Shown: positions 2 through 61,633 of the stretch, piece after piece
How positions within the stretch are numbered: position 1 is the first letter of the stretch
How the letters are laid out: each line of letters begins with the position of its first letter
Source of the DNA: a virus
Direction: 5' to 3' (one strand)
Length of the DNA: 64,000 nt
Virus record (IMG/VR): IMGVR_UViG_3300027782_000032
Span: 64,001 to 128,000 of that record
The notes under the pieces: model-generated
Databases searched by the model: none
Seen by the model: only the letters and a program-made list of their open reading frames with translations
What the model was told of the DNA's origin: nothing
Translations under genes and position numbers: made by a program

Positions 2-3000
2 ACCAACCATGTCTACGTTTGACGCAAGAAGCTTTCTCTGAAGAACGCCATACTTTGGATTGTCACCAAAGACTTGCTTTAGTATTCCCTTAACATTCTT
101 CTGTTCTAGCTTTGGATTGGCGGAGTCTCCAAGTCCAGTAACTGCTTTAAATGAGTCGTATAAAGCTAGCCTGTGGTCTGACAGATTTGAAAAGCTCTTA
201 GAAGCTTCTTTCATTTCATTGTTAGAGTCGATTAACTCCTTGTAAAGATAGTTAGCGTCTCCAACCATAGGCAACCCACTTTGTTGCATAACGCTTACAG
301 GCCTGAACAAAGGAGGAAGCACTGGAACCTTGCTCATCATCCAGTCAGAAGGATGCATCTTAAGGCTCTGAGCTGTTTTAAGATAACCAAGCTTGCGCAC
401 AGCTGTGTCACGATACGACTTCTTACCTGAGGCTATCTGAGCCCTAGCTTTTATAAGCTCTTGGTCAACGTTTATCTTTTTAAGGGCTGAGCTGATTGCT
501 TCAGGTCCTTTAACACCGTTAAGCTCTTCCTTTCCAGAAAGAACGTCTCTAAACTTGTTCTCAGTAAGCCCTAGAATTCTTCTAATAGGCTCTTCCATGA
601 CTGGGTTAGGCATAGATTCGTGCAGCTTAACGTGGCTCCACATAGTGCCGCCATGACCTCCTGTTAGCCTGTTATCAAAAAGGCCATCACCAGCAGGCTT
701 CATTCCGTTTTCCCAGTCTACTGTATCTGATCTCTTAATTTCTCTATCACCGGACAGAGCGTCAACGTCTTTGTCGGTCATAGCCATAAGCTGTGTCTTA
801 GATCCATTTCTAACTGGGTTGATTCCAGCTCCTTGAAGCTGAGCCATAAACTTTCGGTAGGTCAGCGGGACCCTTGGTATAGGTAAAGACTTTCCAGTCA
901 TAAACGCTGCCCAGTAGTCGTCATTCTTCTGTCCCCTAATCGACCCAGCGTCCCTTAGAACCTCATGAGCACCATGAGATAGAAGTGCATTAACATCCAT
1001 AAGAGCCATGCGCTTGCTGCCTTCTTCTCCACCTTTTGCTGGAGTTTCCTCTGCAGTGTATCCGCTAGCTATACCGCGGCCTTGTCCTTTAGACTCTGAG
1101 GTATGGTGAAGCTTCATAAAGAACCTGTTACCAGTGAAGATGTTCTTTATCTTCTTACCTGATTCTGGGTCTTCGATGTCTTCCATGTCGCTAAGGTTGT
1201 TTTGCTTAAGCTCATTTATTGCAAACTCTGTAAGGTCATTAATGTTATCAAAGTCTTTTATAGCGTAGCGCTTTCCTGTCTTCTCAGCAACTTTTCCAAG
1301 AGCTGCCTCTACCATCTGGCTTGGATTGGTTCTAGTTATAACCCCTAGTGGATTAAGAAGTATTTCAAAAGGTCTACCTTGCGCGTCTCTAGGCATTTTA
1401 TCTTCTGGTATAACTGCAGCTATAACACCCTTATCTCCATACCTTCCAGAGAGCTTGTCACCTTCTTTCATCGGGTTAAGACTTTTAACAGTTACCGAAT
1501 ACCCCTTTTTAGTTTGAGCTATGTCAGTTACTATTCCTTCGTTCTCGTGATCCCATGTAGTTGTTGCGTTTGTAAACCCGTTACGTGATCTTCCAACCTG
1601 CTGATTATGGGCTCTTGACAGTATGTTAGCTTGTAAGATAAGTGGGTCACCTTTTCTTACAACTGTGCCAGCCTTTATAACACCGTTGTCATCCATGCCA
1701 GACAGGGCTTCCTTAGAGTACTCAGAAGGAAACAGAGTTAAAAAAGGCTTCTTTCCATGCTTTGAATCGTCGCCAAGCTCAGCCTCATGCTGGTACATAT
1801 GCTCTGACGTTAATCTCTTTGCTGCGCCTTCAGATATGACAATCGCGTCTTCAAAGTTGTATCCTTTGTAAGGTATGTACGCCGACCTTAGATTTGTACC
1901 TAAAGCAGCTGTACCTTTATCGTCAGTATAGTTAGACCTAGCCAATAGGTCTCCATTTCCAACTACATCTCCTACTTTTACGGTAGGCGTATTGTGCAAA
2001 AACGTCTTACGATTGAATGGAAGATTGTTGTAAATCTCTTTCTTATGCAGCTGTCCGTCATCACCCCTAATGTGTATCTCGTCTCCATCCACTTTTATAA
2101 CCTGTCCTGCTACGGTAGACCTTACAGCACCCATGTGGCCGCCATAAGATTCTTCATAAGACTTATCGTCTTCGTCTGGCATTCCCGATTGCACATAAGG
2201 AGATTCTGGGTTTTGAAGGGGTAGCGCCTGCGTAAGCATTCTAGCGCCCATCATAACTCTCTGGCCTTTAGTTGCGCTCTTAAGAGGAATCATGTTTGCT
2301 AAGTGGTTAAAGGAGCTTTCCATTCTTGGAAGCTCGTAGTTAACGTCTTTCCTGTCTACGTACTTGATCTTTCCGTTGACCAGTGCAGCTATCTTATTAT
2401 TGGTTTTGTCTGCCATTTGATTTGGAAAAGCTATTGCAGATCCTGCAAGCTCTTGAGGAGTTTTCCATGCGTCTTCTCCTGTATTGACGTCTCTAAAGCT
2501 ACCATAAACCTTTCCGTCTATGCCCTTACGAGAGTTGATAGCTATTCTGCTATCCACTCCAACCTTAAGAGACTCAGGAGTTAATAAAGGGTCTACAAAC
2601 CCGAAGTGAGATGGCTGCACATTACGAGCTTCTTCTGGCACTGATTGAAGAGAAGGTATACCACCCTCTCCAAGTCTACTAACCCTAGTTATCTGATTAA
2701 GCAAGTCGGCTGGGTTGACCTCTTCAAGAGGCTGACCAAGTCCGCTAGTCATAATAGCGCCATTTATCTGAGAGTCTAGAAACCCAGGAGCAAAAGAGCT
2801 TAGGTTCTTTTTAAAGCTGGCTTTCCATAGCAGCGGCCTCATTACTCTATGGGCTACCTTTACCCTTTCTGAAAATAGGTCTTCTGGCCCTATCATAGAC
2901 TGGTACGACATAGCGTCACGGTCGTCTGGATCTTGTTCTTTCCTATGAACTGCAAGCAGTTTTTTTGTAGCTGCTATGATAGAGTCTGCTGAAACATTGG

Positions 3001-3865
3001 CAAACGGGCTACCAAGTGTCCGTGAGTTAACCTCTGGGTCCATCTCCATCTTTGACATAGCCTCAATCACCGACTTCTTCCTGCTCTCAGGAGTGACTAC
3101 GTCGCCTGGCTTTGATTTAGCTATTCTGTTGAATATTTTATCAAGATGGCTTGGGTCGTCTGTATCAGCGTTGGCTTGGTATATTTCATTACCCCAAGCT
3201 TCTCTCAGCTGCTTGTCGCTAGCGCCCAAAGCCTTAAGAAGTGGAGTTATAGGAACAGAAGACTGACCGAATCCTATAGAAAAAACTCCTTTAGCTGGGT
3301 CAAGCGAGTATCTATGCGATGCGCCTTTTCCAGGCATTATGTTTGCGTGACTCTCTACGTCACCGCTATTTGTAACTCTTGTGAACACTCCAGGCTTAAG
3401 TCGCATCTGATTTGCCAGCGTGTACTCTGTGCCTTTTACTATAAACGTTCCCCTGTCTGTAAGATAAGGAACCTTGGCTAGAGTTGTTCTCTTAGAATCT
3501 AAGACCTCGCCTGTCTCATTATCTGTAAGGTTAAGAGTACCCTTTAGGCTTCTGCTAAGAGTGTTACCTTTTAAGATAGCTTCTTTCTGTGACTTAATTG
3601 ACTTAGTTTCTTCTTCGTCATTCCAGCCAACTTCAGCAATGCTTAAAGTGTGCCTTTGATTTACTAAAGGCTGAATGCCAGCTGCAGACGCTTGAACTCC
3701 TCCGAATATAGCAGCTCTAGTAGCTGCTACATCATCAAACCGACGCATGGTTGGCGGTGGCGCTACTGGCTTTAAAGGAGCCTTAGAACTAACCAAGCCG
3801 ACTGGCTTGCTTAGCGTCGGCTCTGGTATTAGGTTGTCTTCATCGTCTGAGAATATTCCAGCCAT
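2..3865 (-). CDS. rpoBC: Multisubunit DNA-directed RNA polymerase, beta-beta' fusion (3' end runs off the window)
   Basis: Absent from the ORF track, consistent with an open frame running off the left edge. My translation from ATG 3865 gives beta motifs GDKLSGRYGDKGVI, GGEEGSKRMALMDVNALLSHGA and VPLTYRKFMAQLQGAGINP, then beta' motifs DGLFDNRLTG, WMMSKVPVLPPLFRP and KYGVLQRKLLASNVDMVG at the window edge. Confidence 0.92.
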   Translation of the reverse strand, partial: MAGIFSDDEDNLIPEPTLSKPVGLVSSKAPLKPVAPPPTMRRFDDVAATRAAIFGGVQASAAGIQPLVNQRHTLSIAEVGWNDEEETKSIKSQKEAILKGNTLSRSLKGTLNLTDNETGEVLDSKRTTLAKVPYLTDRGTFIVKGTEYTLANQMRLKPGVFTRVTNSGDVESHANIMPGKGASHRYSLDPAKGVFSIGFGQSSVPITPLLKALGASDKQLREAWGNEIYQANADTDDPSHLDKIFNRIAKSKPGDVVTPESRKKSVIEAMSKMEMDPEVNSRTLGSPFANVSADSIIAATKKLLAVHRKEQDPDDRDAMSYQSMIGPEDLFSERVKVAHRVMRPLLWKASFKKNLSSFAPGFLDSQINGAIMTSGLGQPLEEVNPADLLNQITRVSRLGEGGIPSLQSVPEEARNVQPSHFGFVDPLLTPESLKVGVDSRIAINSRKGIDGKVYGSFRDVNTGEDAWKTPQELAGSAIAFPNQMADKTNNKIAALVNGKIKYVDRKDVNYELPRMESSFNHLANMIPLKSATKGQRVMMGARMLTQALPLQNPESPYVQSGMPDEDDKSYEESYGGHMGAVRSTVAGQVIKVDGDEIHIRGDDGQLHKKEIYNNLPFNRKTFLHNTPTVKVGDVVGNGDLLARSNYTDDKGTAALGTNLRSAYIPYKGYNFEDAIVISEGAAKRLTSEHMYQHEAELGDDSKHGKKPFLTLFPSEYSKEALSGMDDNGVIKAGTVVRKGDPLILQANILSRAHNQQVGRSRNGFTNATTTWDHENEGIVTDIAQTKKGYSVTVKSLNPMKEGDKLSGRYGDKGVIAAVIPEDKMPRDAQGRPFEILLNPLGVITRTNPSQMVEAALGKVAEKTGKRYAIKDFDNINDLTEFAINELKQNNLSDMEDIEDPESGKKIKNIFTGNRFFMKLHHTSESKGQGRGIASGYTAEETPAKGGEEGSKRMALMDVNALLSHGAHEVLRDAGSIRGQKNDDYWAAFMTGKSLPIPRVPLTYRKFMAQLQGAGINPVRNGSKTQLMAMTDKDVDALSGDREIKRSDTVDWENGMKPAGDGLFDNRLTGGHGGTMWSHVKLHESMPNPVMEEPIRRILGLTENKFRDVLSGKEELNGVKGPEAISSALKKINVDQELIKARAQIASGKKSYRDTAVRKLGYLKTAQSLKMHPSDWMMSKVPVLPPLFRPVSVMQQSGLPMVGDANYLYKELIDSNNEMKEASKSFSNLSDHRLALYDSFKAVTGLGDSANPKLEQKNVKGILKQVFGDNPKYGVLQRKLLASNVDMVG

Positions 3866-12068: not shown

Positions 12069-12233
12069 TTACCAGCTCCTTCGAACTGTCACAGATAAGT
12101 GTACCTTATCTATGATCTTGTCGTCCCACGGGCATGCCGTGGTACTGTAGGTACTCTCAACCGAATGAGAAACCTTAGGCGCACATCTGCATCCAGCAGC
12201 TGACAACACCAATACCAAAATTAAAATCCTCAT
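12069..12233 (-). CDS. 54-aa putative lipoprotein (MRILILVLVLSAAGC...)
   Basis: Below the ORF-track cutoff; AAGGAG RBS; basic-hydrophobic-lipobox signal; sole ORF between P3 and T3. Confidence 0.7.
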   Translation of the reverse strand: MRILILVLVLSAAGCRCAPKVSHSVESTYSTTACPWDDKIIDKVHLSVTVRRSW

Positions 12234-20707: not shown

Positions 20708-21292
20708 TTATCCTCCTACTTTTGTTGGTTTGTCTTCAAATAGGATCATAGAGATAGACTCTACAAACGCCTCTGTAACGGGCCTCTCATTCTTCCATAT
20801 CGCTAAGCCAAACCGCCTGTAAGGTCTTCCAGTCTTATCCTTATCATGCCACCTGTCTTCAAAGTCTTTCCAAGGTATATAGCCCCTAGCGTCATCTAAG
20901 GCTGGGTCTTCGAAGTAAACGTTATTAGCGTCGTAGTCTATTGCTATAACGTAGTGGCCGCTGTCTCCAGCTAGCTCAGCAGGCGTAGAAGCCCAAGCCT
21001 GCACAGCTATGATTACTGGATGGCCTTCTTCTAAATAATACTTAAGTTCTTGGTTGGTCATTCGCTCGTGCCATACCGTGCTGTAACCTCTTGCCTTGGC
21101 AGCCTTGCTAAGGGCCATAGGAGTGGTTCCGTCAACAGGATCGGACTTAAGCTCTGCAGCTAAAATAGACTCCTCGATGAACTCGCCCCAGTAGCCAAAG
21201 ATAGCGCTAAGGGCCGCGGGTCCGCACGTATAACAGGACTTCTGACGAGCGTCAGGTAAAGGTATTCGATTTCCTCGCAGGGTCCTGTCCAT
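20708..21292 (-). CDS. C39-family (papain-like) cysteine peptidase
   Basis: QKSCYTCGPAAL (Gln/Cys), GHYVIA (His), EDPA (Asp); AAGGAG RBS. Confidence 0.85.
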   Translation of the reverse strand: MDRTLRGNRIPLPDARQKSCYTCGPAALSAIFGYWGEFIEESILAAELKSDPVDGTTPMALSKAAKARGYSTVWHERMTNQELKYYLEEGHPVIIAVQAWASTPAELAGDSGHYVIAIDYDANNVYFEDPALDDARGYIPWKDFEDRWHDKDKTGRPYRRFGLAIWKNERPVTEAFVESISMILFEDKPTKVGG

Positions 21293-22955: not shown

Positions 22956-25214
22956 TTAAGCCCCTTTCAACCCTTGGTTATAACTGTTTTGTAATACACC
23001 TTCTGCTTGCCCGTTCTGCTGCTTCTGCTGGCCACCAAACATGCTGTGAAGCCCGTAGCCTGCTACGCCTGTGCCTAGAGCGCCTAAAAGGTACTTGGCC
23101 CAGGGGTTGTTCTGCATGAAGTTAACTACTGGAAGAGCGTATCCAGCGGTGCGCCTCTCAGCTTCGTACTGACCTGCAGAGTCGTACATGCCTTGCTGCA
23201 TGCCTCTACCTACATCTTTAACAGTGTCAATAGCTGGCGCAACGCCTGGAACTTTCCTAACTGTGTTGCCAATGTTAGTAGCCATAGTACCTAGACCTTG
23301 AGCTACTCCGCCTGCGTAGTTAGATGCGTTGTCCTTCATAGACCTTAGTTTACTTTTAGCAATAACACCCTTGGCCATAGTAAATGGGTTTAAAGATTTA
23401 CCTAAGTAACTATCAACCCCGTAGTCAATTGCTTTGTCTGCCCATCCATTAATCGTACTAGAGACGTCTCCAGTTCCTTTAAAGTAATTGCTTACGTTGT
23501 TAGCCATAGCAGGAAGGTCTGGTCGATTACTCATAGCCTGAAGGCGCTCAAAAGCCTCTGGGCTGTACATTGACTGCAAAGCTGTAGACCCTGCGTTCAT
23601 TACTCCTGACCCTATAGACTTTAAAGAAGGAGAAGGACTAGAAGCTGCAGGCGCTGCAGCCTTAGGAGCTGGAGCTGATCCTGCACTTGGTGCAGCAACG
23701 TCAGACTGCTTGCCCATACCCATGAGCGTTCCGCCTGCTGATAAGAAGTTTTTTCCAAGCCTTTGAGCTCCAGAAATAACCTTACCTGCGCTATCAGTGG
23801 CTTGTCCCATAGCCTTCTCAGCACCTTTAGCTTGATTGTATCGCCTAGTTACTTCCCCTGGGCTGGTCCAGCCTGGAGCCCTGACCCATTTTTCTACCTC
23901 TGAAGTTGCGGCTGCTCCAACCTGCCTGCCAGTGTTCTGCAACGACTTTTTCATGTTAGCAAAGTCAAAGCCTCTAGCTGGTGCAGTACCTAGTATGGAA
24001 GGATCTAGCTTAGCTTTTGAGCTTATACTAGAGAAGTCAAAGTTACGTGCAGGAGCTGTACCTGACGCAGAAGGAGCTGCATTAGCCCTTCCTAGCTGAG
24101 ACCGTTGCCTATAAGCCATTTCTCTTGATTTGTTACTATCGTCTATATTGTTAGCTATGCTGTGGAATGCACTTCCAAACTCTCCTACTGACTTTACAGG
24201 GTTAGCAAAGTTTTGATAGACCTGTTGCATGTAAGATGGCCCTTCAGCTTGCTTAGTTGATTGGCCCCTATCATTGTTATCTAGAACCAAGCCGCCAGCG
24301 TAAAGGCTTTCTGGAGAGCCATGGAAATGCTCTTTTACCATGCGCTTTAGCACTCGCTGCTCTGCCTGCCTGTATAGGTCTTGAAAGTTCAGCTTCTTAA
24401 GCTCTGGGTACTCTTCAGCGAAGTCTGAAAGCTCCCAGTCCTTCTTAGGGCGCTGCGCTCTAGGAATCGCAGGCTTATTACCAAACATAGACCTGTACAT
24501 GGATCCAGGTATGTTTTTCCATAACTTGACCATGCTCTGTGCTTGCTTAACCCCGCCAGCTGGATCAAAGCCTAGATTCTTCTCTGTTACTCTTCTTAAC
24601 GCATTACGCGCAGTACCAAGCGGAGCAACTGGCTTTAAACCTTTTTGATTAAAACTCATCTTTCCAGGGACTGGCTTAATTGGCTTAGTTACCTGCATAC
24701 CCTCTGAGGAGTCAGAGTTGATGGCGGTTTCTTCTTCATCACCAGATCCTCTGCCAGGACTGGTAATAACAGAAGACAGCTTAGACAGTAGCGTACGCTC
24801 TGCAGCAGCTTTCAAAGGAGACGAGCCTGCCCATATAGAGTACAAATATTTTACTGCAGCAAGGCTACTGCTCTTCTCAACCTTCTTAAGCTTAGTGTAA
24901 TACTCAGGATCTTGAGTTAAGTGATCCATGGCTATCTCTTTAGCCATGCCAGTGTCGTTAGTGTGCTCTTTTTCTTCGTCAATGCCTTCATCGAGTACTC
25001 CTTTAGAGAAGTCTGAAGGCTTCTTGTCATCGCCTACTCCACCCTTAAGCTTGTTAGTTTCTAAAGCCTTCTTCTCTGCTTGATCTTCTACATGCTCTGG
25101 TAGGTCTTTCTTACCTGTAGCGGTAGACCACTCATCGCAATCCCATGAGCCAGCTTGGCCTTTACCCTTGAGGAGGTAACATAATTTACGTTGTGAATCA
25201 GATTTGAACGGCAT
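22956..25214 (-). CDS. Large multi-module protein with an N-terminal EHT...AxEIAxDHL...YY module (DUF5661-like from recall) and low-complexity C-terminus
   Basis: EEKEHTNDTGMAKEIAMDHLTQDPEYYTKL. Start moved to MPFKS (25214) with GGAG RBS. Confidence 0.7.
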   Translation of the reverse strand: MPFKSDSQRKLCYLLKGKGQAGSWDCDEWSTATGKKDLPEHVEDQAEKKALETNKLKGGVGDDKKPSDFSKGVLDEGIDEEKEHTNDTGMAKEIAMDHLTQDPEYYTKLKKVEKSSSLAAVKYLYSIWAGSSPLKAAAERTLLSKLSSVITSPGRGSGDEEETAINSDSSEGMQVTKPIKPVPGKMSFNQKGLKPVAPLGTARNALRRVTEKNLGFDPAGGVKQAQSMVKLWKNIPGSMYRSMFGNKPAIPRAQRPKKDWELSDFAEEYPELKKLNFQDLYRQAEQRVLKRMVKEHFHGSPESLYAGGLVLDNNDRGQSTKQAEGPSYMQQVYQNFANPVKSVGEFGSAFHSIANNIDDSNKSREMAYRQRSQLGRANAAPSASGTAPARNFDFSSISSKAKLDPSILGTAPARGFDFANMKKSLQNTGRQVGAAATSEVEKWVRAPGWTSPGEVTRRYNQAKGAEKAMGQATDSAGKVISGAQRLGKNFLSAGGTLMGMGKQSDVAAPSAGSAPAPKAAAPAASSPSPSLKSIGSGVMNAGSTALQSMYSPEAFERLQAMSNRPDLPAMANNVSNYFKGTGDVSSTINGWADKAIDYGVDSYLGKSLNPFTMAKGVIAKSKLRSMKDNASNYAGGVAQGLGTMATNIGNTVRKVPGVAPAIDTVKDVGRGMQQGMYDSAGQYEAERRTAGYALPVVNFMQNNPWAKYLLGALGTGVAGYGLHSMFGGQQKQQNGQAEGVLQNSYNQGLKGA

Positions 25215-25300
25215 ATCTAGGCTCCTGATGGTGACGTATAGCGTCATCCATTATATCAAGAGCCTTCTACGGAAGCTATATATTCATATAAAGCCTTGAA

Positions 25301-28678: not shown

Positions 28679-29236
28679 CTACACTACTGACAGCTTACTC
28701 ACCTCATTATCCTCAGTAACTCTCTTCTTCTTACACCCTACTGGAATGTAGAACCCCAGTTGTGGAGACGTCTCCAATCCGTAGCTTCGTCGGATGGACT
28801 CTAGGTCATCGCTCTTAATAGAAATAGCCCACAGCTTTTCATACTCACCTGTTGCAGGCAGCTCAACTATAGGGCCAAGAGTGTAGTGATAAGAGTGACC
28901 GCGCTCAGTGATATGGCTAGTTCCGCCTAGCTTATCTACCTCTTCTTTGGTCATTACCTTGATAGCGCACTCAGTTCTATTGTTACGCACAACGAATTCA
29001 GCCCCTGGCTCATCTAGAGCGTCAAAGACACCTTTGATAAGCGAAGAGGGGACTGTTAGTTCTAGGTTACCGCTGGGACCTGCTTGAAGCCTGCCAGCAA
29101 GAGCGTGCACTGAAGCGTGATCCGCACTCTTGTTCATATGGCCATGCGCCTGCCCAAACGAGAACATCTCAGCGTTGAGAGCCTTGAGCCACTCAGCGCC
29201 TTTGATAAGTCCTAATGATATCGGAGGTATGGTCAT
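28679..29236 (-). CDS. Hypothetical protein
   Basis: 185 aa; ATGA-coupled to the upstream gene; contains the palindrome (LETSPQ). Confidence 0.7.
   Translation of the reverse strand: MTIPPISLGLIKGAEWLKALNAEMFSFGQAHGHMNKSADHASVHALAGRLQAGPSGNLELTVPSSLIKGVFDALDEPGAEFVVRNNRTECAIKVMTKEEVDKLGGTSHITERGHSYHYTLGPIVELPATGEYEKLWAISIKSDDLESIRRSYGLETSPQLGFYIPVGCKKKRVTEDNEVSKLSVV
28763..28776. repeat. Iterated palindrome copy 4 (in CDS)
   Basis: Read directly from the sequence. Confidence 0.95.
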
Positions 29237-30411
29237 TTAGATGTCTCCAGTATTCTACGCAGCCACAGCTGACCGGCTGGGCTGTTTAAATCGGAGGGCT
29301 TATACTTCTTTGCCAGTTCGCCTAGCTCTCTGTTGGACATACTGACCTCCGGTGAGAAATTATAGTCCCCGCCCATGTGCTTTCCGGTAACGTCTTTAAA
29401 AGCCCTGGCTGATTGTCCAAGTTCATTAAATACAGCCCCTGCCTCAATAGCAGCTGTCCTTCCTTTAGCGGCTAAAGAATCCGAAAGTTTGGAAGGGCTA
29501 AAAGGGTCTGCATAAGTATTATCGGATATCTTATTAGAGTTATTGCCTGTATTGTACCATCTTAATGCTCTAGGGCCTTTTGCATATGTACTAACCGCAT
29601 TAGTATGATTTTTTCCAAGGGCATCCTTGTCGTAATAGTCACCAATCGCATCATGTCTCGTTGACCTGTTGTTTATGGGCAGCCCTTTATGGTCTGTTGT
29701 TTGTGTATAGTATGTGCGGCCTCCCATCCCCAGATCCTGCCAACCAGCGTGAGTGTTTTCGTGTACTCTAGTGGCGTTTATGTTGTCTAGGCTTCTAGGC
29801 TCGTCAGTTGTTTTTTGAGCCCCTCCAGCATAACGAGGTCGGCCTAGATCTGGGTGAAGCCTAGGCACCAATGAGTACTGCACACTTGGACTGCCCGGGT
29901 ATGACCACTCGGCTGCATGAGGCGCTTGCCCAAGAGCATCGAACGGGTGCTTAGACCAAGCCATATGTGGTATTGGAGCGTTATCACTCATATCCGAAGC
30001 TATTTGACCCATCCTTGCATTCCACTTGTTCCATGCCCCGTCTTGACCTAGCAGTGAAGACCGACTCGGCATTGTCGGAGAGGTTTTAGGGTTTAGCTCA
30101 TTTAACTGTCCGGTAAGACTTTCGTGGAACTTAAGTCTACTTGTCCCTAACCCTCCTTCAGGTGGAGAATAGTTAGTGGATATAAAGGCGTTATATGGCT
30201 CCTCAGATTTAAGACTCCATTTGCCGTCTGGTGACTTAACAGATAAATCAGGAACCCTAGGTGTAGTAGAGGCTGAAGGAAGAGTTCCAACTCTATTATG
30301 TAGTCCTCCGTAGACGTTTTTTGGAGGGCCTACCTTAAAATCGTGGTCTTCGTTAGCAGCTCTCTTCCCCATCATGCGCCCAAACGCTGCTGCTTTTTCT
30401 AGTCTGTTCAT
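29233..30411 (-). CDS. MNRLEK-leader protein with an HExxH motif (possible zincin metallopeptidase cargo)
   Basis: N-terminal MNRLEKAAAFGRMMGK; RVHENTHAG with a later AIEAG. Confidence 0.65.
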   Translation of the reverse strand: MNRLEKAAAFGRMMGKRAANEDHDFKVGPPKNVYGGLHNRVGTLPSASTTPRVPDLSVKSPDGKWSLKSEEPYNAFISTNYSPPEGGLGTSRLKFHESLTGQLNELNPKTSPTMPSRSSLLGQDGAWNKWNARMGQIASDMSDNAPIPHMAWSKHPFDALGQAPHAAEWSYPGSPSVQYSLVPRLHPDLGRPRYAGGAQKTTDEPRSLDNINATRVHENTHAGWQDLGMGGRTYYTQTTDHKGLPINNRSTRHDAIGDYYDKDALGKNHTNAVSTYAKGPRALRWYNTGNNSNKISDNTYADPFSPSKLSDSLAAKGRTAAIEAGAVFNELGQSARAFKDVTGKHMGGDYNFSPEVSMSNRELGELAKKYKPSDLNSPAGQLWLRRILETSK

Positions 30412-31058
30412 TGGTTTGTCTCGTCTGAGTTAACCTTAAAAAGTTCGTTTAAGTCTTTTGGATTCTTTGTATCATACTCGACTGTGCCAGGCGTGCTACC
30501 ATATCTGTTTACAAGCCTGTAGTTGCTGTCATATAGTTTCTTGCCAGTATCGTACTTACGTGCCTCTATCTCTTCGTCCCAAGGCTTTCCCTTTGCTATG
30601 TTCTTTCTTTTAACTCTCTCTATCCGCTGCTTTAGTAGGTCTTGCAAAGGTGTGGTAACCAGTACTCTGTTAGGATACCTTGCAAGCTGACCTCTACCTA
30701 GCAAAGACAACTGAGTCCCCTCAACAACTGCACCGTCCTTAGCGGAATCAAGCATCTCTGTAGCCATTCCCCTAGCCGCATTTAGAAATCTTCTTCTCTC
30801 CGGAGATCCTGCTATAGTATGTCGGATGTCTGGGTCACTTTCTAACATAGGGCGCCATCTAGGATGATCATCGATAGATAATACAGGAAGCTTTAAAGCC
30901 TCTCCAAGGCTTTTAGCTACCGTAGACTTACCTGCTCCGCTATGACCGCTAACAAGAAACACTCTACGTCCTGCATCGTTTACAGAGTCCAAGCCTAGAT
31001 CAGCAGCAAGCTTCCCCATCATGCGCCCAAACGCTGCTGCTTTTTCTAGTCTGTTCAT
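30408..31058 (-). CDS. MNRLEK-leader protein with a P-loop kinase-like domain
   Basis: VSGHSGAGKST Walker A. Start moved to 31058, 2 nt after the upstream stop. Confidence 0.75.
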   Translation of the reverse strand: MNRLEKAAAFGRMMGKLAADLGLDSVNDAGRRVFLVSGHSGAGKSTVAKSLGEALKLPVLSIDDHPRWRPMLESDPDIRHTIAGSPERRRFLNAARGMATEMLDSAKDGAVVEGTQLSLLGRGQLARYPNRVLVTTPLQDLLKQRIERVKRKNIAKGKPWDEEIEARKYDTGKKLYDSNYRLVNRYGSTPGTVEYDTKNPKDLNELFKVNSDETNQ

Positions 31059-31060
31059 GA

Positions 31061-32779
31061 TTAACAGTTCCATTTACGTAGTGCTTTGTTAATTCGGCTA
31101 TCTGGATCATTTGCTGTTTCTTCAGAGGTAAGCTTAGACTTCATGCCACCCATTCGAGCGCAGAAGCTGTCTTTACGAGCTCCGCCTTCTGGCTGAGGTC
31201 TTTTTATGTCCTGACCCTTAGCTTTTAAGCTAGCCCTTCCTTTCTCGTTTAGGCCTCCGTCTGGGTTCTTGCCTTCTGAAGTCTGCCAAGCTTCTGAGGC
31301 CTTCTTCTCTGATTCTTTCTTCTTCTTACCTACAGGACGGCAAGAGCCTTCAGTTAACGCCGCTGTGCCAGGTACACGCTCGTAGCCTGTCCAGCACGCC
31401 GCAGACTTTAGAGTGTCTGCTGCTTTTTTGGCAGTCATAGGAGTGGTCGGCGCAGCCTTAATCTGAGACGAGAATGCGGGGTACACAGAGTCTTCAAATA
31501 CGTCCTCATTTCCGATAGGGCTGTCGCCTTCTTGTTTGTACCTATCTGGATACCACTTTGGTAGTAAGTGTGAGGCAAGCATAGCCCTACCCATTGCCGT
31601 GGACGTAAGCTCGCTTTCTTCGTTCTCTGCCATATCTTTCATTACAGAAAACAAATGATCATAGTCTTTTTCTGGTGATGAGAATAACCTAGTTAAAAGC
31701 CTAGGCTCCATCGTTCTCTCGGCATCTAGCCTCATCTCAGTGACGCCGTTGTGAGGACCCCATTGAGACTTAATACCTACAGGCTGATCTAGTTTCTTCC
31801 AGAATATGCCTGCCTGCTTACCCATGGCCGAACCAAACTCTGCTGCTTTTTCTAATTTATTCGTATCAATCGCTCCTGTGTTAGGTTTAATGTTTTGAGG
31901 TTCATCGTTACCGTACTCTTCGTCAAATTCTTTTTGAAGCTTAGCTGCCTGTACAGCTCCATACGCTCTGCCAGCAATAATACCAGCAAGAGGATTAGCT
32001 GCTAGAGCTCCTACATAAGATCCGTAGCCTGCAGGTAACACTCTAGTTCTCTCAATAGCATTCTGCTTATACTCTTTAGAATCTGCTCCTAAAGCTTTTT
32101 TTAAAGCATCGTCGCTTAAACTGTTGGCTCTTGCTTCATGAACAAGGTTAGCCCCAGGAACCATAAAATAGGATGCATGATAAAGGTCGCCGGCTAAGCC
32201 TTTTAAAGGCTTAGAAGCTATATTGCCTTTGCCAGGTTTTATACCATACAGGCCGTTAAAGTCTAGTGCGTGACCTAATTCGTGCTGTGTCACTGCAGGC
32301 TCGTGCATGTATTCGCCTATAGTGTCTGACATCCTATTATAGTGGGATGCTCTTAAAAGAGGAGTAATAGCATTAGTAACAAGGGTCTGAGGCATACCTA
32401 TCAAGCGCATAGGAAGCGAAACCTTTTGGTTATGTAATACTCTTCCTCCTAACCGTCTGTACCAAGGTAAGTTGTCTCCCCTGTCTTTTTTCCATATAAT
32501 ATCGTCTATTGTGTTTGTACCGCCTAGCCTCAATACAGTGTCTTTAAGGGCTTCTCTATTATCGTCAGAAGAATTAGCTATTAGCTCTGCATCGTGTTTG
32601 TGCTCTTCAAACCTATCTGGAAGATACTTATGAAACAATGACCTAGACGGGTCTTTAAGGGCGTTACCAGTTAACATTAGATTTTGAAAGCCGCCTATAC
32701 GTCCTAGCGTGCTGGCAGCTATTCTTGATATTGGGCCACCTTCTTCAACATGTATTGAAGTTTTTTCTAATCTGTTCAT
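31061..32779 (-). CDS. MNRLEK-leader multidomain protein: HExxH metallopeptidase-like domain, internal second leader, C-terminal CWxGY and GGLNxKG...SFCARM...RKWNC modules (DUF6321-like from recall)
   Basis: QHELGHALD; internal NKLEKAAEFGSAMGKQA; C-terminal SRINKALRKWNC. Confidence 0.72.
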   Translation of the reverse strand: MNRLEKTSIHVEEGGPISRIAASTLGRIGGFQNLMLTGNALKDPSRSLFHKYLPDRFEEHKHDAELIANSSDDNREALKDTVLRLGGTNTIDDIIWKKDRGDNLPWYRRLGGRVLHNQKVSLPMRLIGMPQTLVTNAITPLLRASHYNRMSDTIGEYMHEPAVTQHELGHALDFNGLYGIKPGKGNIASKPLKGLAGDLYHASYFMVPGANLVHEARANSLSDDALKKALGADSKEYKQNAIERTRVLPAGYGSYVGALAANPLAGIIAGRAYGAVQAAKLQKEFDEEYGNDEPQNIKPNTGAIDTNKLEKAAEFGSAMGKQAGIFWKKLDQPVGIKSQWGPHNGVTEMRLDAERTMEPRLLTRLFSSPEKDYDHLFSVMKDMAENEESELTSTAMGRAMLASHLLPKWYPDRYKQEGDSPIGNEDVFEDSVYPAFSSQIKAAPTTPMTAKKAADTLKSAACWTGYERVPGTAALTEGSCRPVGKKKKESEKKASEAWQTSEGKNPDGGLNEKGRASLKAKGQDIKRPQPEGGARKDSFCARMGGMKSKLTSEETANDPDSRINKALRKWNC

Positions 32780-32796
32780 GGCGCTCCTCTGTAGGT

Positions 32797-33399
32797 TTAC
32801 TTATTAGACCTCAAACCTAAGTATTTAGCAGCGGTTTCGCCTGCACTACTTAAATCATTAAGAAGGTTATTGCCTCCTGCTCCACTACCTGTACCTGTAA
32901 GGTATCCAACACCCTCGTTAACAGCTTCATTCATTTTTTTAGTGTTTAGTAAGCCGCCAGTGTAAGGTACTTCCCCTAGCATGACGTTGCTTCCTATAAG
33001 ATCTTTTTGTGACTTCTCAGTAGCGTCTGGTGATGTGTTATTTACAGCGTGCATGCGATCTTTGTGCAACTGCTTTAACATCGTAAGTGGGTTATACATT
33101 TGATAAGCGGCTGTACCTGCACCTCCTAACATACCAGCGCCTGCACCAAGAAGACCGCCTCTTGTAGCCCCGTACAAAGCTCTGCTAAGTGCGCCCCGTC
33201 TAGGTTTGCCTGAACCGTCCTCATCTTCTTCGTTACCTACCATTCCGGTTAAGCCTGCAAGGCCGCCCAAGGCTGCACCTCCAAGTCCGCCTAAACCGCC
33301 AAAGCCAGCAGCATTAGTTAGAACTCCGTTGTATCCTTCGCCGGCTGCAGCTTTGCCCATCATTGCTCCGAAAGCTGCTGCTTTTTCTAATCTGTTCAT
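32797..33399 (-). CDS. MNRLEK-leader protein with Gly-rich hydrophobic segments
   Basis: MNRLEKAAAFGAMMGKAAA; AGGAG RBS. Confidence 0.75.
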   Translation of the reverse strand: MNRLEKAAAFGAMMGKAAAGEGYNGVLTNAAGFGGLGGLGGAALGGLAGLTGMVGNEEDEDGSGKPRRGALSRALYGATRGGLLGAGAGMLGGAGTAAYQMYNPLTMLKQLHKDRMHAVNNTSPDATEKSQKDLIGSNVMLGEVPYTGGLLNTKKMNEAVNEGVGYLTGTGSGAGGNNLLNDLSSAGETAAKYLGLRSNK

Positions 33400-33426: not shown

Positions 33427-33849
33427 TTAGGCCGCGTCTTGGTTAGAAAGTATACTAAGTCCACCGTTGTCTAATCTACGCCTTAAAGATCTAAGCTCAT
33501 CCTCTAGTTGAATGACCTTAATTCTCAATTCGTCGTTCTCTTTACGGCAGTTACGTCTGTCGTTGTAGAGTTCTTCTATGTCCTTCTTAAGGTTCTTCAT
33601 CTCTTCCCTTAGAAAACTCTGCATGTCTTTAGATGACTCTACTATAAGCCTGTATTCGCTGAACAACGTATCATTCTCATGGTGCTCTAAGCGCTGCTTT
33701 TTTAAGATGATCTCTTTGGTCTTTATGTCAGCTTCTTTTGCAGCCTTTAGCCTACTGACGTAGATAAAGGAAATGGCTCCCGCAAGGGAGCCAGCGGCAC
33801 CAAATAGAATGCTTATCGCTGAGAGTATGATGTCTAGCTTAAAGTCCAT
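33427..33849 (-). CDS. Membrane-anchored coiled-coil protein (holin-like topology possible)
   Basis: One N-terminal TM helix followed by a heptad-rich charged region. Confidence 0.6.
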   Translation of the reverse strand: MDFKLDIILSAISILFGAAGSLAGAISFIYVSRLKAAKEADIKTKEIILKKQRLEHHENDTLFSEYRLIVESSKDMQSFLREEMKNLKKDIEELYNDRRNCRKENDELRIKVIQLEDELRSLRRRLDNGGLSILSNQDAA

Positions 33850-33878: not shown

Positions 33879-34325
33879 CTAATACTTTCTAGGTTGAACG
33901 TTCTTTACGTCATTAAACTCGTCTGGTCCGCCGTAGTTTACTTTAGGATTGTTTCTACCTGCGTAGTCTTGTATTAGGCCGGGTACTGCTCTAGACATGC
34001 CTGGAATGTCTTTCTTAAATGAAGCAGCAGCTCCCATAAGATGTGGAGTAGCAGCCATAAGACCACTAGGTATACCACTACCTCTAGCAACATTGTTTAC
34101 CAGCTTACTAGCGGCAAGGCCTCCCTGAGCTATACCTTGCTGCCTGCGTACTTGGTCTTGGGTGTACTCTGATGGTATACCCATCGCTCCAGCGAATGGA
34201 GTTAAAGGGCCCTTACGATACTTGTCAGCAGCTGGAACTGCCTGAGTAGGATCTGCAGCCTTCTTAAAGAACACCCTATGAAGATTAGCCAACTTGTTGA
34301 AACTGCTCATAGTCTTTACATCCAT
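33879..34325 (-). CDS. Hypothetical protein with a leader-like N-terminus (FNKLA...FKKAAD)
   Basis: 148-aa ORF. Confidence 0.6.
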   Translation of the reverse strand: MDVKTMSSFNKLANLHRVFFKKAADPTQAVPAADKYRKGPLTPFAGAMGIPSEYTQDQVRRQQGIAQGGLAASKLVNNVARGSGIPSGLMAATPHLMGAAASFKKDIPGMSRAVPGLIQDYAGRNNPKVNYGGPDEFNDVKNVQPRKY

Positions 34326-37927: not shown

Positions 37928-38755
37928 TTAGAGTGACCCTGGGGGCATGTATGGAAAGTCGGAGTCTGAATCATCATCTTCATCGCCAAACTCTTCGTCT
38001 TCTTCCAACTCCTCGTCAGTAGGGGCTCTGAACACGAAGTTTGCTTCCGATATCAACTCAAGCCTTGGCAGCTTTGGAAATATAATCCTCATAGCTTGCC
38101 TTATCTTTTCAACATCGTTGCATATCTCACAATCATCGGGGTCATTGACTCCTATGTCAACAGTTATCTCCATATAAGAGTCGGATGGATCGGAATCATA
38201 GCCTGAATCCTCCATATCCTGATCTTCATTAAAGGAGTAATCGCTGTCACTGTCTGAGTCACTATCGCTGTCTGAATCGCTATCGTATCCTGGCTCGCCT
38301 TCTCTACCCTTATGATCACCTAGGTCGTAGTCAACATGCCATTCTGAACTCTCAGAATCAGAGTCGCTATCTGAATCGCTGTCTGAGTCAACCTTGTCAT
38401 TACCAAGAATGCCAAGAGCCTCTTCCATCTGGTCGTCTGACATGTAAGGCTTAGTGGAGACGTCTCCACTGGATGGTATAATAGCTGAGCACTGCATAAA
38501 CAGAGGACCTACTGCTCCCTTAGTCTGGGAGTCCTTTACTGTCTTCTCAAAGTACTCTGATAGCTTGTACTTAGACTTGAAGCCTTTCTCATATAGTATC
38601 TTGATGATCTCCATGGAGTCATACACGGCTATAGTTCCGCTAGCTGGAGCTGGCACTACACCAACAAAAGCTCTGTCAAACCCTTTCATGAGCTTGATGT
38701 TAGGGTATAGCTTAGTTATTGCCTCTGCTGTCATGTGGTTTCGCTTATGCTTCAT
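37928..38755 (-). CDS. Highly acidic protein with (DS)n repeats
   Basis: Globular N-terminus (KGFDRAFVGV...AVYD), then two DSDSDS tracts and an E/D-rich tail. Confidence 0.7.
   Translation of the reverse strand: MKHKRNHMTAEAITKLYPNIKLMKGFDRAFVGVVPAPASGTIAVYDSMEIIKILYEKGFKSKYKLSEYFEKTVKDSQTKGAVGPLFMQCSAIIPSSGDVSTKPYMSDDQMEEALGILGNDKVDSDSDSDSDSDSESSEWHVDYDLGDHKGREGEPGYDSDSDSDSDSDSDSDYSFNEDQDMEDSGYDSDPSDSYMEITVDIGVNDPDDCEICNDVEKIRQAMRIIFPKLPRLELISEANFVFRAPTDEELEEDEEFGDEDDDSDSDFPYMPPGSL
38455..38468. repeat. Iterated palindrome copy 5 (in CDS; 18-bp perfect palindrome)
   Basis: Read directly from the sequence (SGDVST). Confidence 0.95.
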
Positions 38756-41090
38756 CGCTATCCTCCTCAGATTCTTCGCTACCTTTAAGCACTTGGGTCA
38801 GAGCTAACACCGCTGGCACAGTCATACCACCAGCTATTAAAGCTTTTTGCAATGACGATAGCCCAGCAGGCGTTATCTTTTCTTTGATTTCTTTTACTAT
38901 CTCTTTAGCTGGGGGTTGAGCTTCCCCTTTTTGAGGTTGAGCTACCCCTTTTTGAGGTTGAGCTACCCCTTTTTGAGGTTGAGCTTCCCCTTTTGCTGGC
39001 TTATTAGTAGGTGGGAAGTAAGCGTCTGGATTGGTAGCGTCGACGTTCTTCCTAGTTATAGCCTTTAATATCTCTGGGCCCTCGTTTGCAGCTATTAAAC
39101 CTGGCGTAGATACTGCAGTTCTTGCTGCAGCCATGGGAGCAGCCTTTACAGCTTTAGTTGCGTTAAAGTTCTTAAGAGCCTTTAAAACAGCTGCTGGGCT
39201 ATCTTTTATATTTTTAAGCAGCTCTGGAATAGACTTTAACGATCTAGGACTTGCCAAACCACCTATGCCAGCTACTAAGTCTGCGTTAGGAATGTCTGCT
39301 GAATGAGCTCCAAATCCAAGAATTCCTTGCCCAAGAGCAATTGCTCTTCCGACAGGGGTTAAAGCTAAAGTATCAAAGAGTGTTTCTGTGCCTTTTTCTA
39401 ACGTACTTTTAGATGGGTTAAACAAAGGTAACGGGTCTACGCTTCCCACCGTAGAGTTGTTAGCTAAATCTTTTTGATTTTTATTGTTTAGATCTACAAG
39501 TGCTTTAAGCCTTTGCTTGTCTTCGTTTCTAGATACAGGGTCTGGATTTCGAAGTATTCGAGTGTCTAGTTCTTTAATTGCCTTGGCAGTATCTTGAATT
39601 CTTGTGTCGCTATCAATTACTTCCCTTGAGCTGTCTACTCCTTGTATAACCTTATTACCATTAAAAGGAGTGTTGTTAGATGTCGGTGGAGGAAGATTAG
39701 GTATAGGAACTTCAGGATCGATTCCAGGTACCAAACTTCCTAACGTCTTTGCAATATTAGTTAAAGAGTTGCCTATACCGCCTGCATAAAGAACGCCTTT
39801 ATCTACACCTTTAGAGCCAAATACAGGCTCGTAAGCTGGTCCACTGTCAAGGCTAGCTTTGTTAGTAGCATTGATTACCATTCGTTTGAGTATTGCGTCC
39901 TTATGCTCTTTTGGTAATCCCTCAAACGCACTTCTTATCTCAGGTGGAAGGTCAGTTAAATCGCCTGTCCTGTACTTATGAGAATGGTTGACTATGGCCT
40001 GAGCTAGGTCGCTTCTTCCTGCATCGCTAGCGCTTAGCCCAGACTTAGCAGCTCTAGCTCTAACATCGGCAAGCCTATTTGCGTTTATTAACTCTTCATT
40101 TGTCTTGTACTTTATAACAGGCTTCGCATCAGGAGGAGGAACAGGAAGAGCAGGAACATTTGAAGATAACGAAGCGCCAACTGGAACACTGTTCTGTGGA
40201 GTAGTTGTCTTTCCTCCAGAGGCTAAGAACTCTTCATACTTTTTATTAATGTCATCGCTGCCTGATTGAGCTGCTGCTGTGTTACTTATTCTATTAAGAG
40301 TCTCGCTTAGGTTCTTGTTAGCTACAGCAGCCTGCTCTGCTGTTTGAAACGTCCTTGGAGGAGGCGTAGGTGCAACTGTAGGAAGGTTTCTTACAGCGTC
40401 TTGAGCTTGAGCCCTTGATGTAGCGTTGCTAATACTGTCGCTAAGGTTCCTATTAGCTTCTCCAGCTTGAGTGCTATTAGGTATAAAAGGTGAAGGAGTG
40501 GGAGATGGCGTAGGTGTAAGGAAAGATGACACGCCATTCGCTAAGCTAGAGGCCAGACGGCCCTTACCTTCAGCTGCTAAGTTCTCTCCAAAGCTGCTTA
40601 ACAGCTTACCAAACCCTGATTCAGCGAAAGGTTTGGACGCGCTGTACTGTTTGTATGAGTTTACTAAGTTTTTAGAGTAATCAGCAGCAGCTGGGAATGC
40701 TTCCATAACCTTGGGAAGCGCTGCAGATGTCAAAGCTGACAGCAATTTGAACGATGCAGCCTTTATAACCTCAGATCTTTGACTAGTGTAATTTTGATCA
40801 GTGTACGCCTGGGCACGCAAACCTCCTAAATTATCATAAGCAATGATTTTATAAGGAGTTACGTCGGATTGGGTGGCTGTTTTATTAAGATTACCACCTA
40901 CGAGAGGCTGTGACAACTGTTTTTTCTTTAAAAAAGGATTAGTTGTCTTATCTCCTAGCTGGGTCTGCTCTTTCGGTTTGTTAGATAACCTAGAAGCACC
41001 TATGCCCATAGGCTTTAAGCCCCTAAAACTGCCACCTAAAGCCCCAGAAAGGGATATACCAGCCTGCTTATCACCTTGATTCAATGACAT
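38745..41090 (-). CDS. Large low-complexity protein (possible virion protein)
   Basis: 781 aa, P/S/T/A-rich, C-terminal hydrophobic segment. Confidence 0.72.
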   Translation of the reverse strand: MSLNQGDKQAGISLSGALGGSFRGLKPMGIGASRLSNKPKEQTQLGDKTTNPFLKKKQLSQPLVGGNLNKTATQSDVTPYKIIAYDNLGGLRAQAYTDQNYTSQRSEVIKAASFKLLSALTSAALPKVMEAFPAAADYSKNLVNSYKQYSASKPFAESGFGKLLSSFGENLAAEGKGRLASSLANGVSSFLTPTPSPTPSPFIPNSTQAGEANRNLSDSISNATSRAQAQDAVRNLPTVAPTPPPRTFQTAEQAAVANKNLSETLNRISNTAAAQSGSDDINKKYEEFLASGGKTTTPQNSVPVGASLSSNVPALPVPPPDAKPVIKYKTNEELINANRLADVRARAAKSGLSASDAGRSDLAQAIVNHSHKYRTGDLTDLPPEIRSAFEGLPKEHKDAILKRMVINATNKASLDSGPAYEPVFGSKGVDKGVLYAGGIGNSLTNIAKTLGSLVPGIDPEVPIPNLPPPTSNNTPFNGNKVIQGVDSSREVIDSDTRIQDTAKAIKELDTRILRNPDPVSRNEDKQRLKALVDLNNKNQKDLANNSTVGSVDPLPLFNPSKSTLEKGTETLFDTLALTPVGRAIALGQGILGFGAHSADIPNADLVAGIGGLASPRSLKSIPELLKNIKDSPAAVLKALKNFNATKAVKAAPMAAARTAVSTPGLIAANEGPEILKAITRKNVDATNPDAYFPPTNKPAKGEAQPQKGVAQPQKGVAQPQKGEAQPPAKEIVKEIKEKITPAGLSSLQKALIAGGMTVPAVLALTQVLKGSEESEEDSDEA
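38914..38994 (-). repeat. 21-bp tandem repeat, about 4 units, encoding QKG(E/V)AQP
   Basis: GGTTGAGCT(T/A)CCCCTTTT repeated at a 21-bp period. Confidence 0.9.
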
Positions 41091-61630: not shown

Positions 61631-61633
61631 TAA

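Follow-up and report, generated by a model that had tools for sequence, protein, structure and literature searches.

A short peptide on many unrelated proteins of a clade of large uncultured phages, and its possible role in loading the phage head

Four adjacent genes of an uncultured lake phage begin with the same short peptide and continue into different proteins, which raises the question of what the peptide does. The genes lie in a stretch of 64,000 nucleotides (the window), comprising bases 64001–128000 of a single 190,371-bp contig with 42.6% G+C (IMG/VR record IMGVR_UViG_3300027782_000032); positions below are those of the window unless the genome or a relative is named. All four open reading frames (ORFs) are on the minus strand (29233–30411, 30408–31073, 31061–32779 and 32797–33399). 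As a preliminary description of this DNA had reported, each of them starts with MNRLEK and three continue with AAAFGxMMGKxA, the exception being the gene for a 572-aa protein. Sequence comparison strongly supports the view that this peptide, here called tag A, is a reusable module carried by many unrelated cargos throughout a clade. Our tentative preference is for a position-independent docking helix that would load variable cargo into the prohead, as the capsid-targeting sequence of phage T4 does.

Spread, position and conservation of tag A

A 32-column profile of tag A, built from 36 tags, was searched against 1.84 billion cluster representatives and matched 99 of them (E ≤ 1e-3). A degenerate DNA pattern for the tag was found in four IMG/VR contigs and several dozen metagenome contigs. 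With the tag masked, the cargos formed 33 clusters at a reciprocal coverage of at least 30% and 63 clusters at a reciprocal coverage of at least 50%. These thresholds were used instead of single-linkage clustering, which collapsed to one mosaic component; sub-modules are common to many cargos in mosaic fashion. Just 12 of 94 tagged proteins had a Pfam match, with DUF6321 in 8, glycine zippers in 3 and a kinase in 1. The preliminary description had proposed that the cargos are interchangeable, and this search bears it out; the peptide does occur on diverse cargos elsewhere, and the refutation that the description had named on this point does not apply.

Tag A is not strictly an N-terminal leader, as that description had it, and is independent of position. 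The tag falls within the first 20 residues in 72 of the 99 copies and is internal in the other 27. Met is absent at tag position 1 in 15 of the internal copies (e.g. KGTIAKAAAFGAMMGK), and the core is still conserved there. Several proteins have two to four copies, and some copies are C-terminal – the motif is the very end of protein P0135 and lies seven residues from the end of P0114. An arrangement in which the tag follows a domain with the motif HELGH is found in the window, in L006 and L008, and in several database homologues, with a different sequence after the tag each time.

The consensus of tag A has about 19 residues, M-N-R-L-E-K-A-A-A-F-G-x-M-M-G-K-x-A-(A/G). Among 48 distinct tag-coding sequences, the pairwise diversity of the 13-codon core was 0.13, 0.14 and 0.43 at codon positions 1, 2 and 3, and all four codons are in use for the invariant Gly and Ala residues. 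Since the diversity is concentrated at third positions, it is the peptide that is conserved. A role of the tag as a DNA or RNA signal is ruled out by the same third-position variation. The 36 tags show no variation at M1, A7, F10 and G15 and hardly any at G11, M14, K16 and A18; E5 is variable (Q, N, D, K and T are also found). R is the most common residue at position 17. Of the 99 copies, 96 have Ala at position 18 and 82 have Ala or Gly at position 19, after which the sequences diverge.

Tag A is predicted to form an amphipathic helix. The AlphaFold2 (AF2) models have a helix at residues 3–21 followed by a disordered linker, and the internal copy in the 572-aa protein is modelled as a helix at residues 306–330. 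On a helical wheel (our own calculation), L4, A7, A8, F10, G11, M14, G15 and A18 lie on one face, where an AxxxGxxxG stripe of small residues is flanked by bulky ones; K6, K16 and residue 17 lie opposite.

The gene block, the second tag and the cargos

Four occurrences of the 18-nt start ATGAACAGAYTAGAAAAA were counted in the window, where 100 shuffles gave an expectation of 0.00. A 48-nt perfect repeat, already noted in the preliminary description (30364–30411 = 31011–31058), is present and codes for two of the tag A leaders. The features of the block are as follows.

28679–29236, minus strand: 2H-phosphoesterase gene, the downstream anchor of the variable block (PF22547, E 5.7e-5, below Pfam's cut-off)
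29233–30411, minus strand: gene for the 392-aa protein, with tag A (coded 30355–30411), a disordered linker and a zincin-like cargo with the motif HENTH; no cysteine
30408–31058, minus strand: gene for the 216-aa protein, with tag A (coded 31002–31058) and a P-loop kinase-like cargo; no cysteine
31061–32779, minus strand: gene for the 572-aa fusion protein, in four parts
31070–31273, minus strand: DUF6321 module, basic, residues 503–570 of the 572-aa protein
31808–31864, minus strand: internal tag A, the fifth copy in the window (TNKLEKAAEFGSAMGKQAG), residues 306–324 of the 572-aa protein
31865–31883, minus strand: fossil ribosome-binding region (taacacaggagcgattgat), now translated within the 572-aa fusion
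31895–32755, minus strand: HELGH zincin-like domain, residues 9–295 of the 572-aa protein
32797–33399, minus strand: gene for the 200-aa protein, with tag A (MNRLEKAAAFGAMMGKAAA, coded 33343–33399) and a Gly-rich glycine-zipper cargo
33427–33849, minus strand: 140-aa gene, whose product has an N-terminal transmembrane helix (glycine zipper FGAAGSLAGA) and a long coiled coil
33879–34325, minus strand: gene for a 148-aa protein with tag B (MSSFNKLANLHRVFFKKA); no cysteine

A search of the genome for tag A found no copies beyond these five. The ORF at 30408–31073 (221 aa) most likely starts at its sixth codon, 31058, which gives a 216-aa protein with the MNRLEK start of its orthologues, and the true start of the 148-aa protein is probably also the sixth codon (34310). 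The 200-aa protein has no cysteine and is 76% identical to an orthologue in a relative (L063:529–1146). Between the 140-aa gene and the 2H-phosphoesterase gene, content and order are hypervariable in the five long tag-bearing contigs, and the phosphoesterase itself is fused to additional domains in relatives. Promoter-like and terminator-like sites in the region were not in excess over chance.

The 572-aa gene records the joining of two such units. Its protein begins with a truncated tag, of which only MNRLEK is left, followed directly by the catalytic HELGH domain and a helical glycine-zipper hairpin, the internal tag A, and a variable region that ends in DUF6321. Residues 307–572 correspond to a separate tag-started gene in a relative (L063:1175–2074, 50% identical), from which it follows that two cassettes have fused in the window gene. 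The internal tag is orthologous to the N-terminal tag of this stand-alone gene, and its former ATG is now ACG. The 19 nt just upstream of it (31865–31883) are identical to the 19 nt upstream of the start of the 200-aa gene (33399).

Neighbouring copies of the tag also evolve in concert, homogenized by gene conversion. The two window leaders that are identical (48/48 nt) match the leader of an 87%-identical orthologue in L017 at 43/48 nt, and two adjacent leaders in L017 are identical to each other at 47/48 nt. Leaders within a genome have private residues in common, for example R12 in the window genome and F4/E9 in L042. Taken with the fusion and fission events, this concerted evolution shows the tag-coding DNA to be a recombination patch. 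The analogy with T4 made in the preliminary description is supported at this level, in that the locus resembles that of the T4 internal proteins: a hypervariable block lies between conserved anchors and recombines at the leader.

Other genes of the same block are headed by a second peptide, tag B (MRSFNKLANLHRVFFKRA; consensus M-R-S-F-N-K-L-A-N-L-H-R-V-F-F-K-R-A). It is equal in length to tag A and has K6, K16, A18 and the hydrophobic register in common with it, whereas its face is bulky, with Leu, His and Phe where tag A has Ala, Gly and Gly. The two are interchangeable on the same cargo: A- and B-tagged members occur together in three cargo clusters, and the L008 homologue of the 392-aa protein has tag B in place of tag A. 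In the alignment of the 392-aa family both tags occupy the same columns, and K16 and A18 are invariant. Every tag-bearing genome has both.

A number of other short terminal modules were seen. One 216-aa gene of the head/RNA polymerase module, at 61142–61792 of the genome (L005:16143–16793, minus strand), starts with a variant of tag B (MSLQGLHNLFFKSAA). This gene adjoins the helicase and RNA polymerase genes and has a PGLWANV motif after its tag; PGLWANV follows tag A in relatives. Some distant homologues of the HELGH domain have S-[LV]-N-K-L-A-[NR]-L-L at their extreme C-terminus, like the first half of tag B, and others start with MPFxSxAQxR..., another short N-terminal module that recurs and is also found near the start of a 763-aa protein of the window (22956–25247); these C-terminal or start-module homologues comprise P0125, P0126, P0144, P0145, P0150 and P0152. 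Relative G001, in which tag A is absent, has three adjacent cysteine-free paralogues in its head module (L163:16883–18715) with a different common N-terminal helix, M[AP]FNYKAIxxVKEAxxK; relatives without tag A therefore seem to have a tag type of their own. In relatives, homologues of the window's 781-aa protein (L007:1071–3638 and L008:3603–6818) end in a basic tail (...RKLRARNANR or ...RRRLRARNAYR), while the window protein itself (38745–41090) ends in an acidic stretch, so the C-terminal basic tag of the neighbouring block has been gained or lost here too.

The identities first given to the cargos – two HExxH proteins, a P-loop kinase-like domain and a Gly-rich protein – are upheld by conserved zinc ligands and a borderline kinase match. 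In the HELGH domain, which has no cysteine and for which there are 53 homologues, H166, E167, H170 and E215 are nearly invariant; in the HENTH cargo of the 392-aa protein, which is unrelated to it, H217, E218, H221 and E323 are invariant in 24 homologues. Both families thus conserve HExxH and a downstream third zinc ligand. The AF2 model of the HELGH domain has a predicted local distance difference test score (pLDDT) above 90 over residues 10–290, and its fold matches are weak (thermolysin, Z 5.5 with 170 residues aligned and a root-mean-square deviation of 5.2; ERAP1, Z 5.1; LasB, Z 5.0). Those of the 392-aa protein are weak and scattered among zincins (ACE, M32 carboxypeptidases and ArdC, Z 3.5–3.9). 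Foldseek found no match to the 572-aa model in the PDB at E ≤ 0.001, and the matches to either model in the PDB (VIA-align) or BFVD were too weak for a fold to be named; DUF6321 proteins alone gave significant rows in the fold searches. The 216-aa cargo matches AAA_33 (PF13671) at E 6e-6, a borderline score of 27 bits against a gathering cut-off of 27, and has the Walker A motif GHSGAGKST and weak PHROG matches to polynucleotide and other kinases. DUF6321 (PF19846) is found in the 572-aa protein at E 2e-15 (57.6 bits, cut-off 28.5); all four cysteines of this protein are in its C-terminal part. This domain occurs in 512 phage records, mostly cyanophages, and it alone accounts for the matches of the 572-aa protein to cultured phage records. 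Beyond this, Pfam and PHROGs were little informative on the cargos, their neighbours and the head genes.

Some pieces of the cargos were recognized by eye. A Nudix-type motif was read in fusions of relatives, and it may be conjectured that this motif, the kinase and the neighbouring phosphoesterase serve RNA or nucleotide repair. Several relatives (L006:10436–11488; proteins P0015, P0019 and P0024) have an additional domain of about 140 residues, beginning ...FRTFYHGTYPDRIDSILRTGLDP, joined in frame ahead of tag A and cargo; it has no Pfam match, and its YHGT motif recalls ADP-ribosyltransferase and Tpt1-type enzymes. A sub-module, G-G-G-G-T-A-[IL]-Y-D-[YW]-L-x-G-T-x-E-x-K-L-R-R, recurs in several otherwise different tagged proteins (e.g. 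L007:8320–8784, L062:306–938 and L009:15343–16185) as a mosaic piece that links cargo clusters.

Two further observations concern the rest of the genome. At its left end, outside the window, ORF translations between genome positions 100 and 5300 are highly repetitive (LKG.../LDLL.../KTVRT...), which suggests long tandem DNA repeats rather than genes. At 12069–12233 of the window (minus strand) a 54-aa ORF has a lipoprotein-type start (MRILILVLVLSAAGC...), and its product is a possible outer-membrane spanin-like lipoprotein.

Destination of the tagged proteins

Nearly all genes of the contig are on one strand. They include a fused RNA polymerase beta/beta' gene (2–3865 of the window), a ribonucleotide reductase and many glycosyltransferases, and the head module is just upstream of the window. 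IMG/VR contigs of 150–235 kb encode more than 100 relatives of the capsid protein. The nearest cultured phage is Salmonella phage Arash, with a capsid protein identity of only 31%. Every genome found with tag A has a capsid protein of at least 95% identity; in seven relatives with a capsid identity of 58–83%, five of them at least 91% complete, it was not found in a search whose positive control worked.

The tagged proteins are strongly depleted in cysteine. Over the 28,795 residues of the 99 representatives the cysteine content is 0.13%, versus a genome average of 1.37%, and 85 of the 99 have none at all. The residual cysteines are mostly paired and inside DUF6321-type modules. Cysteine is missing from all 13 proteins of the 392-aa family. 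This genome's remaining long proteins without cysteine are RNA polymerase pieces, the helicase, a 1730-aa protein (genome 27959–33151) that we tentatively take to be the tape measure, and the 781-aa protein; three of the basic-tail proteins and the tag-B proteins are also free of it. Mass spectrometry of Arash virions places RNA polymerase beta and beta', a sigma factor and the helicase with the most abundant proteins, in a generous proteome that lists 116 proteins with coverage values too coarse for N-terminal processing to be read from them. DUF6321 ends a virion protein of cyanophage S-SCSM1 that was detected by mass spectrometry, and it begins an 836-aa protein in the head module of G001 (L163:10497–13007). 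The proposal of the preliminary description, that the peptide loads proteins into the head for injection, draws indirect support from the roughly ten-fold cysteine depletion, the virion homologues in Arash and the S-SCSM1 protein. The tag-B variant gene of the head/RNA polymerase module, the three paralogues and the DUF6321 protein in the head module of G001, and the confinement of tag A to close capsid relatives point indirectly the same way.

Removal of the tag is a separate matter. Both tags end in K-[RK/x]-A, and most of the 53 HELGH homologues have K-x-A or K-x-S at the N-terminal edge of that domain; the candidate cleavage site is K16-x-A18. K-x-A is also seen near the N-termini of the capsid protein, the scaffold, the helicase and several head-module proteins; in the capsid protein it does not discriminate, because the surrounding N-terminus is invariant too. 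That the tag is later cut off is possible, with the balance somewhat against it.

In the reading that we tentatively prefer, the helix would bind a conserved part of the assembling head – for example the portal region, the scaffold or core, or the inside of the capsid – and the tagged proteins, enclosed in the prohead by this means, would exit with the DNA at infection. The helix would be followed by a flexible linker and then by almost any cargo, including here two zincin-like enzymes, the P-loop kinase, glycine-zipper proteins, DUF6321 proteins and many others. Because binding is proposed to need only the helix, the tag could work at the N-terminus, between domains or at the C-terminus, and tag B could replace tag A on the same cargo. 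The tag-coding DNA would act as a short homology patch through which neighbouring cassettes exchange, convert, fuse and split, giving the hypervariable cargo set. A version of this idea that we consider rather unlikely has the phage head behave like an encapsulin: helix A or B would recruit about 100 cargo families, including new zincins and RNA-repair-like enzymes, fused cassettes would be cut at K-x-A, fusion and fission would be neutral, recombination at the tag could reshuffle the arsenal, and the cysteine-free set would travel through the tail.

Several findings weigh against delivery to the head. The capsid, portal-like and tail proteins of this phage contain cysteine, and cysteine depletion would also fit extracytoplasmic or other fates. 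The tagged block is about 30 kb from the head module, and many cargos have glycine-zipper, membrane-like segments. The restriction of the tag to one clade is weak evidence of co-evolution with the capsid, because it reflects a single evolutionary event. A tblastn search with tags A and B and the 392-aa protein found no match among cultured phages, in 50,697 phage records. K-x-A in the first 32 residues is only mildly enriched, in 9 of 25 head-region genes versus 19 of 133 others, and was rejected as a genome-wide mark of cleavage. The candidate for a head protease, the product of a 478-aa gene beside the scaffold gene, is only a lead: it has no Pfam match of note (RTX is far below the cut-off), no sequence relative of note in the PDB and an unannotated PHROG match, and the nearest named clusters in the Atlas are the S78 and S77 prohead proteases (0.89–0.90). 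In all five genomes with tags, the gene for the membrane-anchored 140-aa protein separates the tag-B block from the tag-A block; this protein co-distributes with the tags and may be their true partner, receptor or organizer.

The internal copies invite a different explanation, in which the motif is mainly a recognition and cleavage site where zincin-like proteins, as has been proposed for polyvalent proteins, or a head protease divide polyproteins and pre-proteins into their domains, and has nothing to do with head delivery. They lie exactly between domains, commonly after the HELGH domain; some proteins have two to four, and the core is kept where Met is lost. The K-x-A/S at the HELGH boundary and the invariance of K16 and A18 in both tags suit such a site, and if the products were cut apart, the many fusions and fissions of cassettes would have no selective effect. 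Yet a conserved amphipathic helix of 15 residues far exceeds what known head proteases or zincins need in a site, the C-terminal copies in P0135 and P0114 leave nothing downstream to release, and an N-terminal copy on a single-domain protein would free only the tag itself. Moreover, a genome that is 88% complete (G006) encodes five tagged proteins and neither zincin family; the zincins are therefore better seen as cargo, and their role as obligatory processing enzymes is weakened. We judge this explanation unlikely. Improbable, too, is a role at the host inner membrane, where the variable proteins would be gathered for envelope remodelling, exclusion or lysis control, away from the capsid, the small face of the tag pairing with the glycine-zipper helix of the 140-aa protein or inserting in the membrane surface. 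The FGAAGSLAGA of that protein resembles the FGAMMGKAA of the tag, several cargos have glycine-zipper segments, and no match to the protein was found at E ≤ 1 in five relatives without tags. This co-distribution reflects one clade, though, the tag is weakly hydrophobic (Kyte-Doolittle about 1.4 over its nine best residues, our own estimate), other cargos look like soluble enzymes or are strongly basic or disordered, and the cysteine avoidance common to RNA polymerase and helicase is left unexplained.

The match of tags A and B in register and basic residues, their complementary faces (small and bulky) and their joint presence in every tag-bearing genome would also suit oligomerization, e.g. 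of A on B, into a hetero-complex or onto an outer virion structure; tail fibres and spikes have conserved N-terminal anchors. We think this very improbable, as the numbers of A and B are unmatched (4–5 A to 1–2 B in this genome), the same cargo accepts either tag, and kinase, zincin and disordered basic cargos are unlike receptor-binding proteins. Least credible, with hardly any weight in our judgement, is an export signal, either a Sec-type signal peptide or a double-glycine leader cut by a phage C39 peptidase, whose gene is 8 kb distant (20708–21292). In its favour, N-terminal copies of the tag are short, basic at the start, rich in Ala in the middle and similar to A-x-A at the end, and cysteine is rare and paired as in exported proteins. 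Against this, no GG, GA or GS, which double-glycine leaders carry at −2/−1, stands at a conserved position (G11 and G15 are preceded by F and M), the hydrophobic stretch is just nine weakly hydrophobic Ala/Gly/Met-rich residues with two Gly, where a Sec signal has a core of about 10 or more before its A-x-A site, R is commonest at −3 of an A-x-A reading, and a P-loop kinase would be without ATP outside the cytoplasm. The motif, the low hydrophobicity and the 27 internal copies, together with the C-terminal ones, led us to reject a Sec or double-glycine leader.

Relation to known systems and significance

The closest precedent is phage T4, in which the internal proteins IPI, IPII and IPIII and Alt have a capsid-targeting sequence that is removed by the gp21 prohead protease (PMC3012670; Mullaney and Black 1996, cited in PMC9024508). 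In both cases rapidly evolving, mutually unrelated accessory proteins, whose genes are neighbours in a variable locus, start with one short conserved peptide, and a conserved coding stretch accompanies the shuffling of cargo. The resemblance suggested in the preliminary description does not extend to sequence: tag A has no similarity to MKTYQEFIAE and no L/I-x-E cut site at its end, and it is not classed as a T4-type capsid-targeting sequence because both the defining sequence and the cut motif are missing. It is also about twice as long, has a glycine-zipper face, occurs internally, repeatedly and C-terminally, and comes in two interchangeable types on about 100 cargo clusters in one narrow clade; packaging and cleavage are here proposals.

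In phage P1 the first 30 residues of DarB suffice to send a reporter to the capsid (PMC9024508). Like the tag, this is an N-terminal peptide of similar length, and it directs a large enzyme into a myovirus head, to be delivered along with the DNA. Unlike the tag, it is known on one protein, it has no sequence similarity to the tag, and its function was established by experiment, where that of the tag would follow from comparison. The giant phages SPN3US and phiKZ have a prohead protease that cuts propeptides from ejection and head proteins after Glu (PMC10052503, PMC7411985); short N-terminal propeptides of 20–24 residues are found on gp45 and gp225, and long SPN3US propeptides are cut at several sites. 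These are also large phages, and they pack many head proteins, including RNA polymerase subunits. Their propeptides are not one sequence spread over many cargos, and the candidate boundary of the tag is K-x-A.

Outside the phages, encapsulins load cargo enzymes through short peptides at a protein terminus, which bind to the interior of an HK97-fold shell. A docking peptide with a flexible linker, at either terminus and on diverse enzymes, is analogous to the tag in its flexibility of position. The tag is a longer helix without a GSL-type consensus, and its container would be a DNA-filled phage head. Polyvalent proteins, which Iyer, Burroughs, Anand, de Souza and Aravind are said to have described in 2017, reportedly combine zincin-like peptidases and counter-defence-type enzymes in mosaics in phages and conjugative elements, and are said to be carried along with the DNA and split into their parts. 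Here the domains are mostly in separate genes, each with its own tag, and no MuF or other polyvalent hallmark domain and no polyvalent-protein peptidase of Pfam was matched. Sequence, length, positional freedom, two interchangeable forms and the number of cargos set the tag apart from the T4, P1 and SPN3US peptides.

If the tag does load the head, a simple sequence rule would find the injected proteins of a whole clade of large uncultured phages from metagenomes alone. About 100 mostly unknown protein families would then be prime candidates for counter-defence and host takeover, and a handle of 19 residues would be available for packing foreign proteins into such phages. It would also follow that targeting peptides need be neither N-terminal nor single. 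Should the avoidance of cysteine prove general, ejected proteins could be predicted from it at little cost. Whether or not its partner is the capsid, the tag is a clear example of a short linear motif that organizes a fast-evolving block of phage genes and doubles as a recombination site.

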